Of a stretch of 64,000 bases of DNA, positions 11,970-55,283 are shown in pieces (the stretch's first letter is position 1; the number at the start of each line of letters is the position of its first letter). Location of the stretch: NCBI GenBank assembly GCA_965249225.1, contig CBDFLT010000007.1, positions 198,213 through 262,212 on the forward strand, given 5' to 3'. A program made the translations under genes and the position numbers. This DNA is from Dehalococcoidia bacterium (GTDB taxonomy: Bacteria; Chloroflexota; Dehalococcoidia; Lucifugimonadales; G963668185). The notes under the pieces were generated by a model, which saw only the letters and a list, made by a program, of their open reading frames with translations, ran no database searches and was not told the DNA's origin.

Positions 11970-13814
11970 CTACTCGATTCGATGCGCCTCTAGGACGTCG
12001 CCTTCTTCGTAGCCTTGATAGCCTTCGAGGACTAAGCCACCTTCGAACCCATTGGTGACCTCTCTGACGTCGTCCTTGAAGTGCTTGAGGCTGACCACTG
12101 TCCCAACGTACAGAGATTCGCCGTTTCGCAGAACGTGGATAATGGAGTTTCGAGTTATGTGGCCATCATTGACGTAGAAGCCTGCGGCCCTGGTCCTCCG
12201 ACCAAGGCCGAATATGGCTCTCACCGTTGCGACCCCTTCGACGATGTCTTGCTGGACCGGCTCGAGAAGACCTTCAAGGGCCTTTTCGATGTCCTCGGTG
12301 AGGGCGTAGATGACGTCGTAGAAGCGTATCTCCACGCTCTCTTGATTGGCCATTGCCAGAGCGCCGGGCTCCGGCTTCGTGTTGAACCCTATGACGATGG
12401 CGTTGGAGGCGACCGCCAGCATTACGTCGCTCTCAGTGATACTAGCGGTGGCGATGTGTACCAGGTTAACCCTTGTCTGATCGGTGTTGAGTCCCTCGAG
12501 TGCGCTGCGCACCGCGTCGACACTGCCCTGTACGTCCGTCTTGACGATCAGGTTGAGGGACTTGACCTCACCGGACTCCATCCTGGAGTGTACGTCCTCT
12601 AAAGTAACACCCCCTCGGGCGCTCAGCTCATGCCGCCTCTGCCGCTCGCGGTCCTCCACCATCTTTTTTGCGGTCTTCTCATCAGGGACGGCGTACAGAA
12701 GGTCTCCTGCTTGTGGAATGTCCCCGAGGCCCAGGACCTCCACGGGCTGTGAGGGCCCCGCTTCCTTAATACGCTGGCCGCGGTCGTTGAACATGGCCCT
12801 CACCCGGCCGTGACGCTCCCCCGCTACCACGTTGTCGCCGATACGCAGGGTGCCAGTCTGTACCAGCACCGTCGTTACCGGACCCTTGCTCTTGTCCAGA
12901 CGTGCTTCGATGACCACGGCCTGTACCGACCGATTCGGGTTGGCCTTGAGCTCGTTAACCTCGGCCACCACTTGGATGTTCGCCAGCAGATCGTCGACTC
13001 CATCTCCTGCCAATGCTGACACCGGAGCCGCTATGACGTCGCCACCCCACTCCTCGATGAGCAGCTCATGCTCAGACAACTGCCTCTTGACCTTTTCCTG
13101 GTCGGCGTTGGGCTTGTCGATCTTGTTAATGGCGACGATGATTGGGACGCCGGCGGCTTTAACATGGTCGATGGCTTCCTCGGTCTGTGGCATGATCCCG
13201 TCGTCGGCGGCAACGACCAGGATCGCCACGTCGGTTACCTGGGCGCCCCGCGCTCGCATGGCGGTAAACGCCTCGTGGCCAGGCGTGTCGATAAAGGTGA
13301 TTAAATTGCCGTCGTGTTCCACCTGGTAAGCGCCTATGTGCTGGGTTATCCCACCGCTCTCAGCGGCGGCCACATTGGCCTTACGTATGGTGTCGAGAAG
13401 AGTCGTCTTGCCGTGGTCGACATGGCCCAGGATGGTCACGACGGGGGGCCGAGGCTCGAGAGCCTCCTGGTCCTCCTCCTTAGTGGAGACCACGAGCGAG
13501 GCGGGTCCGATATTCTGGTCGGCAAGCGGCTGCACTTGGTAACCTAGCGACTGGGCTATCAGCGCGGCAGTATCGTGCTCTACCACCTCGTTGATCGTAT
13601 ACATGTGGCCTTGCCGCATGAAGACCTTGATCAGCTCAACGACGTCAACGTGCATGATCGTGGCAAGGTCGGACACTGTGAGGGCGGCGGGGATTTCCAG
13701 GACCGCCGTGCCAGCCACGTCGCCTGTTGCAGCAACCTGAGCTGGCTGGGGCGCAGGGTCGGTGCTCACGGCTCCCTGTTGTGGGTCTTCATGCTTTGTA
13801 GCCCTGTTAGCCAT
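11970..13814 (-). CDS. infB: translation initiation factor IF-2
   Basis: GTPase motifs [25 protein letters not shown] and NKID, plus the C-terminal IF-2 domains. Confidence 0.95.
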
Positions 13815-35600: not shown

Positions 35601-36452
35601 CTAGGCGGCCTCGCTATCGTCTCCGTTGTCGGCCTCTTCCGCCGGGTGCGTCGGCTCACACTTTCGCGCCGTGGTGATGAACCCCGTGTGTCCTACCATA
35701 CGGTGGTTCGGCCGAATGGTGCGGGCACCCACCGTCCATGGCCGCATCAAGACCTCGTGAGTCTCGATCACGTCGAAGGCCTGCTCCTTCAGGGCGAGGG
35801 TAAAGTCGCGCACCTGCATCACCGTTGGCAGGAATCCCAGGATTATTCCACCCGGCACCAGCGCCTCCGACGCGTGGGGGACAACGTGCCACGGCTCGGC
35901 TAGATCGAGCACGATCCTGTCCAGGTCCCTTTCCTCGAAGCCCTCATACACGTCCCCAAGCTTGACGGTGAGGTTCTGATGCTCCGGGTGCATGGCGCTG
36001 ATATTGCTCATAGCCCGGTCGATCATGTCGCTACGCACATCGTAGGAAGTGACCGATCCTCGGTCGCCCACGGCGCGCAGCAGAGTGATGGTCACCGCCC
36101 CTGAGCCGGTTCCGGCCTCCAGCACCCTGGCTCCGGGAAAGATGTCCCCATAAATGAGGATCGCCCCCAGGTCCTTAGGGTATACGACGGTGGCGATGCG
36201 GGGCATGTCCCTCGTAAAGTCCCCCAACGTAGGCTTCAGCGCCAGCAGCCGGTGGCCCTGCGCGGTCTTCACTCTCGACCCCACGTCTCGGCCGATGAGG
36301 TCGGTGTGAGGAAAGTTGCCTAGGTGTGAGTGGAAGGCGCCTGAGGACTTAAGTTGGACCAGGTATCTCCGCCCTCGGCGGTCAATTATCAGGGCGAAGT
36401 CACCCTCCTTGAAGATGTGTCTGGAGGACATTTCGGGACCGCTTCTAGACAC
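35601..36452 (-). CDS. trmI: tRNA (adenine-N1)-methyltransferase TrmI/Gcd14 family
   Basis: FKEGDFALIIDRRGRRYLVQL...H.G.F.H.DLIG and the SAM motif VLEAGTGSGAVT. Confidence 0.8.
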   Translation of the reverse strand: MSRSGPEMSSRHIFKEGDFALIIDRRGRRYLVQLKSSGAFHSHLGNFPHTDLIGRDVGSRVKTAQGHRLLALKPTLGDFTRDMPRIATVVYPKDLGAILIYGDIFPGARVLEAGTGSGAVTITLLRAVGDRGSVTSYDVRSDMIDRAMSNISAMHPEHQNLTVKLGDVYEGFEERDLDRIVLDLAEPWHVVPHASEALVPGGIILGFLPTVMQVRDFTLALKEQAFDVIETHEVLMRPWTVGARTIRPNHRMVGHTGFITTARKCEPTHPAEEADNGDDSEAA

Positions 36453-36476
36453 TCAAACGTGGTCGCACAACGGGTC

Positions 36477-36935
36477 CTACAAACCGCTGACGCGGGCCAG
36501 GACATCGGCGACGTCGAGATAGGACGCTGAGCGATAGACCCTTCTGAAGCGCACGATGCCATCCCTGTCGATAATGAACACGGCCCGCTTGGACACGCCG
36601 GTTTCCTGGTCAAATATGTCGTAAAGCTGGGCCACCTGACCGTGAGGGTAGAAGTCGGACAGAAGAGGGTAGGGCAGGCTGCCCAGGGAGGTCGCATAGG
36701 CGGCCTGTACCGGCTGTGGGTCTGTGCTTATACCCAGGACCTGGGCATCCTTCTCCTTGAACTTCCGGTTCGCCGCTCGGAACAAGGAGACCTGGTCCGT
36801 TCAGCCGCTTGTAAACGACGAGATGTGGAACGAAAGGACGACGTTCTTGTCGCCTTGGAATTGGCTGAGGGACACGTCTTTGTTAGTGTGCGAGGGCACC
36901 GTGAAGTCGGGCGCCGGTTCTCCTACGTCGACCAT
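36477..36935 (-). CDS. AhpE/Prx-like peroxiredoxin with in-frame UGA at the peroxidatic Cys position (putative selenoprotein; alternatively a pseudogene)
   Basis: Own translation from ATG 36935 (AAGGAGGA 6 nt upstream): MVDVGEPAPDFTVPSHTNKDVSLSQFQGDKNVVLSFHISSFTSG-[TGA 36803-36801]-TDQVSLFRAANRKFKEKDAQVLGISTD... This continues in frame into track ORF 36477..36785. The TGA sits in the T-x-x-C motif. Confidence 0.65.
36752..36790 (-). promoter_or_regulatory. SECIS-like stem-loop 10 nt downstream of the peroxiredoxin UGA
   Basis: TCTCCTTG-TTCCG-[AGCGGCGAAC]-CGGAA-(GTT bulge)-CAAGGAGA. This gives 13 bp, with the apical loop at +24..+33 from the UGA and a G as the second loop nucleotide. Confidence 0.5.
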
Positions 36936-37072
36936 AAGATTCCTCCTTCTAAGAGCGCGACGGTAATTTGAGGGGCCGAGGAATTACTCTATCGATGGCG
37001 AACCAAGGCCGCTCCCTGCGGCCAAGATACACCACCGGCAGGACACGATGGAACCCTCTTCCGGGCGTTCCG

Positions 37073-38569
37073 TTACACTCGTTTCCAGCGGAGATCGGGC
37101 TGGCGTGCCGCGCGTGCCTCGTCCAACCTGGTGTTGGGTGTGTCGTGTGGTGCCTCGTGAAGCAGTTCGGGACTTTCTCTGGCCTCCTCCGCGATCCTCT
37201 TCATCACGGCAATGAAGCCGTCCAGCGTCTCCTTCGACTCGGTCTCCGTGGGCTCGATCATTAGCGCCTCGGCCACGATTAGCGGGAAGTACATGGTGGG
37301 AGGGTGGATGCCGTAGTCGATGAGTCGCTTTGCCACATCCAGCGCGCTTACGCCGTGGCCTCGCTGTAGGTTCTTCGCCGAGAAGACCACCTCGTGCATG
37401 CAGACCCGGTCGTAGGGCAGGTCGTAATAGCCCTTTAGCTGACTCAGGATGTAGTTGGCGTTGATTACCGCGTCCTCGCTGATCTGCGAGATGCCCTTAT
37501 CGCCTAGAAGGCTTATGTACGTGTAGGCGCGCACCAGAACCCCGAAATTGCCCTGGTAGGCGCCCAATCTGCCGATAGTCTTAGGAGGTGCTTCGAGGTT
37601 GTAATGTTCCCGGCCATCCTCTGACTGCCGCTGCACCACTACGGGGGTGGGGAGGAACGGCTTCAACCTATCTGCCACCATAACCGGCCCCGCCCCGGGC
37701 CCTCCTCCGCCGTGGGGGGTGCTGAAGGTCTTGTGCAGGTTAGAGTGCACCACGTCGAATCCCAGGTCCCCCAGCTTGACGCGGCCGAGCAGCGCGTTCA
37801 AGTTGGCCCCGTCGCCGTACACGATGCCGCCAGCCTCTCGCACGATGCGGCACACCTCCAGGATGTTGGTATCGAACAGACCCAAGGTGCTGGGGAGGGT
37901 CAGCATTATCCCCGCCAGGTCGCGGTCGGCCGCCTCTCTGAGCGCGTCCAAGTCCGCGTTGCCCTGGGCGTCGGATGGAAGCGTAACTACCTCGAACCCA
38001 GCCATGTCGGCGGACGCCGGGTTAGTCCCATGAGCGCTGTCAGGGATCAGAACGTTCTTTCGGTGGGAGTCTCCGTTGGCCAGGTGAAAGGCCCTGACCA
38101 TCAGCATCCCTGTCAGCTCTCCGGCCGCCCCCGCCATCGGAGCCAGGCTGGTCGCGGCCATTCCAGTTATCTCCGCCAGGTAGTCCTGCAACTGGAACAT
38201 GAGCTTGAGAGCGCCCTGTACCGTGGACGCCGGCTGGAGGGGGTGTATCTGGGACATCCCTGGTACGCTGGCCATCTCGTCGTGCAGCTTGGGATTGTAC
38301 TTCATGGTACAGCTGCCCAGCGGGTAGTAGTTGGTATCTATTGAGAAGTTGAGCTGGCTGAGCTGTGAGAAGTATCTGACCAGCTCCCCTTCGGTCACCT
38401 CCACAAAGTCGAACTCGTGACGCAAAAGCTCCGCCGGCGGCAATACGTGCTTCGGCACATCCAGTGGAGGCAGTGTGGTTCCTATGCGCCCAGGCACACT
38501 GCGGTCCATGAGTAGCCTGCGACGACCGTCGTCGATCTCAATCTGTGTGGTTGTCATGACGCTCGTCAC
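37073..38569 (-). CDS. gcvPB: glycine dehydrogenase (aminomethyl-transferring) subunit 2
   Basis: 498 aa, with the PLP-lysine context NLHKTFSTPHGGGGPG. It follows gcvPA with a 4-nt overlap. Confidence 0.93.
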   Translation of the reverse strand: MTSVMTTTQIEIDDGRRRLLMDRSVPGRIGTTLPPLDVPKHVLPPAELLRHEFDFVEVTEGELVRYFSQLSQLNFSIDTNYYPLGSCTMKYNPKLHDEMASVPGMSQIHPLQPASTVQGALKLMFQLQDYLAEITGMAATSLAPMAGAAGELTGMLMVRAFHLANGDSHRKNVLIPDSAHGTNPASADMAGFEVVTLPSDAQGNADLDALREAADRDLAGIMLTLPSTLGLFDTNILEVCRIVREAGGIVYGDGANLNALLGRVKLGDLGFDVVHSNLHKTFSTPHGGGGPGAGPVMVADRLKPFLPTPVVVQRQSEDGREHYNLEAPPKTIGRLGAYQGNFGVLVRAYTYISLLGDKGISQISEDAVINANYILSQLKGYYDLPYDRVCMHEVVFSAKNLQRGHGVSALDVAKRLIDYGIHPPTMYFPLIVAEALMIEPTETESKETLDGFIAVMKRIAEEARESPELLHEAPHDTPNTRLDEARAARQPDLRWKRV

Positions 38570-39897
38570 GCCGCCTCACCTATCTCGCGCATGGCCACGG
38601 CCAGGGCGTCGATCTCCTCGCGCGTATTTACTTCCGTGAAGCAGAGAAGGGTACCGTCCTGGATCGAGGAGCTTACGTCCAGCCCGCCGATGATCCGGTA
38701 GTCCAAGAGCATCTCGTTGAGCTCAGTGGGGGGCAGGGGACACTTAACTACGAACTCTCGGAAGAAGGTGCCTTCGATGGGAAGAGAGAACCCGGGGATT
38801 TTTGAGATGAGGTCCGCTGCGTAGTGGGCCTTGTGGTAGCAGAGCTCGGCTACTTGCCTGGTCCCCTGTTTGCCCAAGGCCGCCATGTAGGCTGTGGTAT
38901 TAAGGGCGATGAGAGCGACGCTGGTGCAGATATTCGACGTGGCCCTCTCGCGGCGGATGTGCTGCTCCCTGGCCTGGAGCGTTAACACATACCCCGTGCG
39001 CCCTCTGGTATCGACGGTCTTGCCTACGATGCGGCCCGGCATCTGGCGTAAGAAGCGCTCCTTGCAAGCGAAGATGCCGACGTAAGGCCCGCCGTATGAG
39101 GGCGGGACGCCTATGGCTTGCCCCTCGGCGGCCACGATGTCGGCGTCGTACTCACCTGGTGGTTTGAACATACCCAGAGACGTGAGGTCTGAGTACACGA
39201 CCAGCATGGCACCATGCGCATGTGCTCTCTCGGACAGGTCCGCTAGGTCCTCCATGTAGCCGAAGAAGTTGGGCTGCTGCACTATGAGGCAAGCGGTGCC
39301 TTCGGTGATGGCGACGTTTTCTCTGGGCACATCTAAAATGTCGAGCCCCGGGGCCTGGGCGTAGGCACGAATCACCTCTTTGTAGGCGGGGGATACCGAA
39401 TCCAGGACCGCGATACGGTCGGCTTTTGTGAGGCGCGCCGCCATAAGGGATGCCTCGGCCAGCGAGCTGCTGCCGTCGTACATCCCGGCGTTTGCAGCCT
39501 CCATTCCCGTCAGCAGGCAGACCAGCGACTGGAACTCGTAGGTGGCCTGCAGCGTACCCTGGGAAATCTCGGGTTGATACGGGGTGTAAGAGGTCATGAA
39601 TTCGCCGCGGCCGGCTATCTGGCGCACCACGGCGGGAATGTGGTGACGGTAGACGCCGGCTCCCAAAAAGCAGGCGTACTCCCCTGGCACCATATTCTGC
39701 CTCGCCATGGCCTCGATGTCGTTTCGAAGCTCGAACTCGGAGCGAGGCGCCGGCAGGTTGAGGGGTGGGTCACGGTATTCGGCGGGAAGGGCATCGAAAA
39801 GCTCCGCCACCGAGTCCACGCCGATGGCATCCAGCATCGCGCGCCGGTCTCGATCGGTGTTGGGGACGTATGGAGATACGAAATCGCGGGTTGTCAT
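38566..39897 (-). CDS. gcvPA: glycine dehydrogenase (aminomethyl-transferring) subunit 1
   Basis: 443 aa, FMTSYTPYQPEISQGTLQ signature. Confidence 0.93.
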   Translation of the reverse strand: MTTRDFVSPYVPNTDRDRRAMLDAIGVDSVAELFDALPAEYRDPPLNLPAPRSEFELRNDIEAMARQNMVPGEYACFLGAGVYRHHIPAVVRQIAGRGEFMTSYTPYQPEISQGTLQATYEFQSLVCLLTGMEAANAGMYDGSSSLAEASLMAARLTKADRIAVLDSVSPAYKEVIRAYAQAPGLDILDVPRENVAITEGTACLIVQQPNFFGYMEDLADLSERAHAHGAMLVVYSDLTSLGMFKPPGEYDADIVAAEGQAIGVPPSYGGPYVGIFACKERFLRQMPGRIVGKTVDTRGRTGYVLTLQAREQHIRRERATSNICTSVALIALNTTAYMAALGKQGTRQVAELCYHKAHYAADLISKIPGFSLPIEGTFFREFVVKCPLPPTELNEMLLDYRIIGGLDVSSSIQDGTLLCFTEVNTREEIDALAVAMREIGEAA

Positions 39898-54284: not shown

Positions 54285-55046
54285 CTACACAGGCTTACTG
54301 AGCTGCTCCTCCTCCCATTCGTTGTCCACGTCCCCGGCGTAGAACCTTTCGGGGTGCTCGACCGACATCATCTGCACGCGGATGATGTAGTTGTCGGGGT
54401 CCAGCTTGACGCCCTTGCGCCACTCGGCCATGGCCTCATCCAACTTGCCGGCCCGATAGAGATCGAGTCCCTTCTGGTAGAAGGTATTCGACTGGGAGTG
54501 GTTGGGTCCCAGGTCCGTACTCTCTTGGCCGTTGGTCCCGTCCAGGCTGCCGCCGGTGGCCCAGTTCTCCACAACCGCCTTGGTGTCGGCGTTCCAGACC
54601 TCGAACGAGGCCAGCTCCTTGTACTGAACGGTCCCGCGCTCGTCGATCAGAAAGCCGTTGGGTACGGCCTTGAAGCCATAAAGCCGGCCCAGCAGGTTCT
54701 CCTCGTCTACGACGGTGGTGAAGGTGACTCCAGCCCTCTCAACGTATGGCCGTGCTCTGTCGGCGCCCTGGGCGTCTACGGCCACCGAGAGGACCTCAAC
54801 GCCGCTGTCCTTGTGCTTCTCGTAAAACTGCTGCCATACAGGCAGCTGCTCGCGGCAGCTTCACCAGGAGGCCCATGTAAAGAGGACCACTCTCTTGCCC
54901 CGGTAGTCCGAGAGGCTCACCCGGTCTCCGTTGAGAGAGGGAAGGGTGAAGTCGGGGGCCTCGTCGCCTACGTTTACAACGCCCGATATAAGTGTCGTTA
55001 TTTCATACCTCGCTTGCGGTCCAGATTCCGGTCCGACCGGAGCCAA
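54285..55046 (-). CDS. TlpA/redoxin-like thiol-disulfide oxidoreductase with C-terminal TPR-like segment and in-frame UGA in the active site (putative selenoprotein)
   Basis: Track ORFs 54861..55046 and 54285..54785 are in the same frame and joined by the TGA at 54863-54861: ...[35 protein letters not shown]-[U][29 protein letters not shown]... The only in-frame start before APDF is TTG 55046. Confidence 0.6.
54825..54851 (-). promoter_or_regulatory. SECIS-like stem-loop downstream of the redoxin UGA
   Basis: GAGCA-GCTGCC-[UGUAU]-GGCAGC-AGUUU. The core is 6 bp with a flanking extension, and the apical loop lies at +21..+25 from the UGA. Confidence 0.4.
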
Positions 55047-55055: not shown

Positions 55056-55283
55056 CTAGAAGCTTCAACCGACCCCGTGAAAGCCGACGGTGACCTGGTC
55101 TCCCTCGACCATGACCGGCGTAATCCTCTCGCCGTCGGTCAGCTTCTCAACCGTGGCCCATTCTTCGGGATTGAGGGAGAGGTCGATGGCGTCGTACTCC
55201 GTTTCCGCCTCATCCAACTCACCTTGAAGAGCAGCAGAGTACGAGCAGTCCGGGTGGGTATATACGACAATCCTGTTGGCCAT
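55056..55283 (-). CDS. glutaredoxin/NrdH-like small redox protein ending ...GVG-U-S-F-stop (putative Uxx-star type selenoprotein)
   Basis: MANRIVVYTHPDCSYSAALQGELDEAETEYDAIDLSLNPEEWATVEKLTDGERITPVMVEGDQVTVGFHGVG. This is followed by TGA (55067-55065), AGC, TTC and TAG (55058-55056). The N-terminal motif is C-S-Y-S rather than CxxC. Confidence 0.55.

Follow-up and report, generated by a model that had tools for sequence, protein, structure and literature searches.

The 64,000-nucleotide stretch of Dehalococcoidia DNA analysed here (the window) carries on its minus strand one intact gene, prx, which almost certainly encodes a 152-residue AhpE-like peroxiredoxin with a predicted selenocysteine (Sec) at its peroxidatic residue. 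The original prediction had read this locus as a putative selenoprotein, and that reading is supported by the Sec machinery of the genome, by orthologues that run full length through the UGA codon and by a conserved hairpin immediately downstream of it.

Results

A single reading frame spans the UGA codon

The prx frame opens at an ATG preceded by a Shine-Dalgarno sequence and reads MVDVGEPAPDFTVP...FHISSFTSG, TGA and then TDQVSLFRAANRKFKEKDAQVLGISTD... up to its TAG stop codon (Table 1). It comprises 44 sense codons, the TGA and 107 further sense codons, and the TGA is its sole internal stop; the original prediction of a ribosome-binding site, a start at 36935 and a frame to 36477 broken only by the TGA proved exact to the base. 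The N-termini of orthologues align with the Met encoded at this ATG in the subfamily alignment (A1). Calling of open reading frames under translation table 11 divides the gene into two pieces, one of 44 aa (36801..36935) and one of 102 aa (36477..36785), the latter opening at a spurious TTG.

The start of prx lies 137 nt past gcvPB and its stop 24 nt ahead of a tRNA methyltransferase gene, and because these gaps are short, co-transcription with both neighbours is possible. A scan of the prx locus for promoters and terminators found nothing meaningful. The same-strand order gcvPA-gcvPB-prx-trmI(-like), which occupies 35601-39897 (minus strand) of the window, is kept in dozens of marine relatives; across related loci, gcvPB adjoins prx in 35 and the trmI-like gene does so in 37. 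A conserved neighbouring gene for a reductant was also sought around the prx loci, and this search returned only gcvPB, the TrmI-like methyltransferase and a Methyltransf_28 protein.

Table 1 Features of the prx locus and Sec machinery genes. Positions are those of the window except where contig C9 of the same assembly is named.
Feature	Position	Strand	Basis and remarks
Shine-Dalgarno AAGGAGGA	36941..36948	-	From sequence; 5-nt spacer before ATG 36935-36933
CDS, 152-residue AhpE-like 1-Sec peroxiredoxin (predicted)	36477..36935	-	Translation; ATG 36935 to TAG 36479-36477
His37-Ile38 codons	36822..36827	-	Phe/Tyr-Pro in AhpE and other peroxiredoxins; HMMER alignment to AhpE
Thr42 codon, active-site Thr of TxxC/U	36810..36812	-	Invariant in subfamily alignment A1
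UGA codon 45, predicted Sec at peroxidatic position (T42-S-G-U45)	36801..36803	-	Aligns with Cys45 of M. tuberculosis AhpE
Predicted SECIS hairpin within CDS	36752..36790	-	Starts 10 nt after UGA; MFE structure
Hairpin lower stem, 8 bp	36790-36783 / 36759-36752	-	
Hairpin upper stem, 5 bp	36782-36778 / 36767-36763	-	
Hairpin loop, 10 nt, AGCGGCGAAC	36777-36768	-	+24..+33
Hairpin bulge, 3 nt, GUU	36762-36760	-	
Arg117 codon, conserved catalytic Arg of peroxiredoxins	36585..36587	-	Invariant in A1; aligns with AhpE Arg (…NRGTFVVD…)
gcvPB, glycine cleavage P-protein subunit 2 (upstream neighbour)	37073..38569	-	Pfam GcvP2_C, GDC-P
TrmI/GCD14-type tRNA methyltransferase (downstream neighbour)	35601..36452	-	Pfam GCD14, TrmI-like_N
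selA	C9:132253-133587		544 bits
selB	C9:58493-60346		371 bits over its frame
selD	C9:148702-149622	+	385 bits; in-frame TGA at active site, SCAG-U-ASK
tRNA-Sec(UCA)	C9:122642-122739	-	Bacterial 8-bp acceptor stem, long variable arm

An AhpE-like active site with a predicted Sec

The read-through product matched the Pfam family AhpC-TSA (PF00578) with 117.1 bits, compared to a cut-off of 26, over profile positions 1-123 of 124, and this match crosses the UGA junction between the two annotated pieces. When the PDB was searched with HMMER, the top seven structures were all M. tuberculosis AhpE (E 1e-28 to 1e-29, residues 1-136), and residue 45 of the window protein fell on the peroxidatic Cys45, in agreement with the AhpE-type assignment that had originally been made by eye. 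No NCBIfam selenoprotein model reached its cut-off with the window protein, including the PrxU equivalog model NF040737 (74.9 bits, cut-off 270) and the Prx-SUH model NF045827 (28 bits, cut-off 298).

His37 is invariant in A1, as are the Thr and Arg of the active site. The canonical Pro of the PxxxTxxC motif is absent from the window protein, in which Ile38 sits on Pro38 of AhpE, and without this Pro, catalysis may not follow AhpE in every detail. The translation contains no Cys, hence no resolving residue. Judged by its sequence, the predicted protein is a member of the AhpE subfamily, a 1-Cys-type peroxiredoxin without a resolving Cys.

The genome encodes the Sec insertion machinery

A search of the genome assembly (2.04 Mb in 9 contigs, 86 % complete) recovered selA, selB, selD and tRNA-Sec, all scoring over curated cut-offs. 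The four genes are on another contig, C9, where they are dispersed and do not form one operon; the earlier statement that the window holds no sel gene was thus correct. The prx gene also confirms that the genome decodes UGA as Sec. A region at about 12780-13439 of the window (C7:210992-211651, minus strand; 645-aa frame) reached only 110 bits with the SelB model, far short of its 242-bit cut-off, and was rejected as a second SelB since only the GTPase part matched, which makes it another translational GTPase.

Two neighbouring selenoprotein candidates at 54.3-55.3 kb gain support from the decoding of UGA as Sec in this genome. The minus-strand frame at 54285-55046 encodes a 253-aa protein with an AhpC-TSA/Redoxin domain followed by TPR repeats; its TGA (54863-54861) lies in the motif W-U-S-C, and a 6-bp hairpin with the loop UGUAU begins about 14 nt past it. 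The second, at 55056-55283 (minus strand), is a small Grx-like ORF whose TGA (55067-55065) stands three codons ahead of the real stop. By folding only, the TGA of this ORF is followed by a strong hairpin of 8-9 bp with the loop GUU, which extends into the beginning of the gene that follows.

The UGA codon is conserved among full-length orthologues

Orthologues were found to have either TGA (Sec) or TGC/TGT (Cys) at exactly the same alignment column, with otherwise intact frames, the outcome of an orthologue alignment that the original prediction had named as support for recoding. Reference genomes, one per species, contributed 44 relatives; the column held TGA in 17 of them, mostly Chloroflexota, and TGC or TGT in 26. 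In JGI metagenomes, the 80 nearest loci came from marine, deep-sea and soil sources and showed 47-62 % identity; 79 of them could be scored, with 78 TGA, one TGT and none with another in-frame stop. The remaining locus (L111) did not pass the filter on the motif and contains a second stop. The DNA patterns used for retrieval held W or C at the Sec position or were sited elsewhere in the gene, so this search was unbiased toward TGA.

Within the same order, 31 of the 40 genomes searched had a prx gene, and in 29 of the 40 there was a match at E <= 1e-30; each of these matches contained exactly one TGA and no further stop. More distant relatives have Cys at the Sec column. The orthologues are full length, neither ending at the UGA nor frameshifted, and their N-terminal 44 residues are conserved as well as the remainder of the protein (A1). 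In one genome of the same order (G011) there are two prx copies about 0.8 kb apart (C4:82012-82431 and 83225-83674), each with one TGA, and three further genomes (G012, G017 and G038) have two copies each, elsewhere in the genome. The nearest named genome with a gene of this clade is a marine Chloroflexota MAG (L017).

A hairpin follows the UGA codon and is conserved with it

The first 60 nt downstream of the UGA have the hairpin of Table 1 as their minimum free energy (MFE) structure (-17.4 kcal/mol; -15.1 kcal/mol when the hairpin is folded alone), and the earlier description of this hairpin as a 13-bp bulged stem from 36790 to 36752 with a 10-nt loop at +24..+33 holds. The published bSECIS model allows 16-37 nt between UGA and loop and an upper stem of 4-16 bp at an MFE of at most -7.5 kcal/mol, with a loop of 3-9 nt that has G in its first or second position (PMC13188914). 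The prx hairpin resembles this model in lying within the ORF just 3' of the UGA and in its 5-bp upper stem and its stability of -15.1 kcal/mol. Its loop begins 23 nt past the UGA, within the allowed range (PMC13188914), as the original prediction had claimed for this spacing. Unlike the model, the MFE structure has a loop of 10 nt, one above the allowed maximum, with G second; an alternative fold at -14.7 kcal/mol, only 0.4 above the MFE, has a 7-nt loop, CGGCGAA, again with G second. In the MFE structures of the 71 orthologues, a G stands first or second in the loop in only 14 cases. Rfam models applied to the hairpin at permissive thresholds returned nothing relevant.

A hairpin followed the UGA in all 71 distinct orthologue sequences; its loop began 22-30 nt past that codon in 70, the single exception being a loop that began at 16 nt. 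The lower stem was 79 % paired in an ungapped alignment (A2), and its covarying pairs (columns 27-63, 30-60 and 33-57), which fall on third-codon positions on both sides, switch between C-G and U-A or among G-C, A-U and C-G. Column shuffles matched the observed covariation in 0 of 500 trials. A control in which the register was slid by +3 gave nearly as many double changes as the true register, so drift in base composition at wobble positions accounts for some of the covariation; the pair counts support the lower stem, but the case for the hairpin does not rest on them. The hairpin was missing from the consensus that RNAalifold computed for the 71-sequence alignment, because the upper stem shifts register among orthologues.

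Compared to dinucleotide shuffles, the 71-nt fold around the UGA was thermodynamically unexceptional (z = +0.2, in another register). We rejected this z value as a test of the hairpin, since coding sequence and GC content dominate its outcome; given the unexceptional value, the significance of the hairpin is carried only by the comparative and codon-permutation tests. The codon-permutation test reshuffled the synonymous codons of each gene, leaving protein sequence and codon usage unchanged, before positions +9 to +56 (48 nt) were folded again. Sec genes (n=90) gave a mean z of -2.6, with 82 % at p <= 0.05 and a mean MFE of -16.7 kcal/mol, whereas Cys genes (n=27) gave a mean z of +0.07, with 4 % at p <= 0.05 and a mean MFE of -9.4 kcal/mol (Mann-Whitney p = 3e-14). 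The window gene itself had z = -2.33 (p = 0.01). This contrast shows that the hairpin is selected at synonymous sites, specifically where the codon is UGA, and such selection tied to the UGA is the signature of a SECIS element, here a predicted one.

Sec orthologues conserve the hairpin, whereas most Cys forms lack it. Within the clade, the Cys forms L135 and P0016 have lost it. Another Cys form (P0004, with TGC; L154:501-959, GCA_044345325.1 contig JAZHCF015233366.1), which is 60 % identical to the window protein, keeps the full hairpin (MFE -20.4, codon-permutation z -2.5), and this looks like a fossil SECIS after a recent Sec-to-Cys change. The other Sec genes of the genome, encoding SelD, a TlpA-like redoxin and a Grx-like protein, also have stable hairpins after their UGA codons.

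The window protein belongs to a clade of Pro-less Sec peroxiredoxins

In a maximum-likelihood tree, the clade that includes the window protein had support values of 100/97, and its stem branch measured 0.54. This clade consists of 70 sequences, 69 of which have Sec and lack the Pro, and one of which is a nested, long-branched Cys form; since the sole Cys form is nested among the Sec forms, Sec is ancestral in the clade. All members have I or V at the Pro column with His just before it, giving the motif FH[I/V]xxFTxGU. A resolving Cys is not conserved; of the Pro-less Sec members, 82 were scored, and 22 of these are entirely free of Cys. Across the whole sample, Sec was used by 82 of 83 Pro-less sequences compared to 14 of 40 that keep the Pro, an association that represents one clade and not independent events. 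The conserved gcvPB-prx-trmI synteny points to vertical inheritance of prx in its lineage.

Alternative readings of the UGA codon

A recent nonsense mutation from TGC or TGT to TGA in a Cys peroxiredoxin needs only one base change, with the downstream frame left open by chance, and gene callers do treat the locus as two fragments (as with the database protein P0002). Such a pseudogene is nevertheless most improbable, being effectively refuted by conservation: the TGA recurs in nearly all scored metagenome orthologues and in the strong matches of most same-order genomes, in frames otherwise intact at 45-62 % protein identity. Sec is moreover ancestral in the clade, a selected hairpin follows the codon and the genome has the Sec machinery. 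We give equally little credence to normal termination at UGA45, by which the product would be the 44-aa peptide or the 102-aa ORF from TTG 36785, even though at least 18 such 'proteins' of 93-104 aa stand among the top 120 database matches. In the 102-aa piece the whole active site is missing, as is half of the thioredoxin fold, and the TTG start of this piece has no counterpart in orthologues, whose truncated calls begin at varying residues. The N-terminal 44 residues, as conserved as the rest, and a Pfam domain that bridges the junction (1-123) also argue against termination.

The least probable reading, which we would set aside almost entirely, is that UGA encodes a standard amino acid in this organism (Trp or Gly, under codes 4 or 25). 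What speaks for it is the W at the Sec column in ENA protein calls of close relatives, one of which translates only with TGA as W; full-length database orthologues of this kind are P0003, P0005-P0015, P0017 and L153:42-500. In one such protein checked at the DNA level the codon was TGA, and the W at the catalytic position stems from gene calling of short contigs under code 4. In the genome studied here TGA is the stop codon of 423 (39 %) of the 1079 ORFs that reach 300 codons or more, so it is not reassigned and the standard code applies; read as a sense codon, TGA would place several internal TGAs in most of them. The sole UCA-anticodon tRNA found is the canonical tRNA-Sec, and a Trp at the peroxidatic position, where homologues have Cys, would abolish catalysis. 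Other public orthologues are filed as C-terminal fragments of 93-104 aa named 'AhpC', and both these and the W proteins are annotation artefacts of the Sec codon. Insertion of Sec at UGA45 is therefore the reading that we retain.

Discussion

In the mechanism that we propose from comparative data, the hairpin 10 nt past UGA45 would recruit SelB-GTP-Sec-tRNA(Sec), so that Sec would be inserted instead of termination taking place and translation would go on to the TAG at 36477. By analogy with the peroxiredoxin and AhpE families, the Sec45 selenolate, placed by Thr42 and Arg117, would then attack a hydroperoxide or peroxynitrite and be converted to a selenenic acid. As in 1-Cys peroxiredoxin chemistry, this selenenic acid would presumably be regenerated by an external thiol reductant, which would be needed because the window protein has no Cys and hence no resolving residue. 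Candidates for this role are proteins of the Trx or Grx type and low-molecular-weight thiols. Sec in place of Cys should confer high reactivity and resistance to irreversible over-oxidation.

The gene adds little scientifically, since Sec-peroxiredoxins rank with the most abundant selenoproteins of the sea and their recoding mechanism is textbook knowledge. The practical consequence of the recoding is a persistent mis-annotation, with the window gene and dozens of its orthologues recorded in the wrong form, as a fragment or with Trp, and with the clade falling outside every NCBIfam selenoprotein model. Why selenium became fixed in some peroxiredoxins while their relatives use sulfur could be studied conveniently in the Pro-less, nearly all-Sec clade, as a natural system.

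A bolder and rather doubtful proposal is that this clade, which is conserved throughout a bacterial order, is a functionally distinct, near-obligate Sec lineage of AhpE-like peroxiredoxins, with a selenium-dependent site that arose through loss of the Pro and gain of His37, a hitherto undescribed reductant and lineage-specific recognition by SelB. If this were true, the active site would have been reshaped by these two changes such that it works well only with selenium, and a SECIS outside the loop-G rule would hint at a lineage-specific mode of SelB recognition. Literature searches found no description of an AhpE-type, Pro-less Sec clade and no specific description of SAR202 with selenocysteine; for the former, this silence is only weakly indicative of novelty, given that earlier surveys pooled all TxxU peroxiredoxins.

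Among characterized systems, M. tuberculosis AhpE (Rv2238c; PDB 1xxu, 1xvw) is like the window protein in its length of about 153 aa, its peroxidatic residue 45, its lack of a resolving Cys and its retention of the active-site Thr and Arg; it differs in having Cys where Sec is predicted here and Phe37-Pro38 in place of His37-Ile38. The reductant system of AhpE consists of mycoredoxin-1 and mycothiol and is specific to Actinobacteria, which makes its use in this organism unlikely.

The original prediction had also called Prx-like proteins an established bacterial selenoprotein family, and the literature bears this out (PMC2398784, PMC5029168, PMC13188914). Sec-Prx accounted for 253 Sec sequences from 34 samples in GOS (PMC2398784) and for 91 genes in 78 sequenced bacteria by 2016 (PMC5029168), and a 2026 review lists 'Prx (pfam00578, TxxU)' among the experimentally verified selenoprotein families and describes it by the motif 'PxxxTxxU' (PMC13188914). 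The window protein departs from this motif in lacking the Pro, and its 152 aa compare to a 233-position profile for PrxU, whose representative from Eubacterium acidaminophilum is the experimentally verified founder of the family. It shares with the family the AhpC/TSA fold, a predicted Sec in place of the peroxidatic Cys in T-x-x-U, abundant Cys homologues and an in-frame UGA followed by a putative coding-region SECIS hairpin. The window gene thus adds a member to a family that surveys of ocean metagenomes have recorded since 2005-2008.
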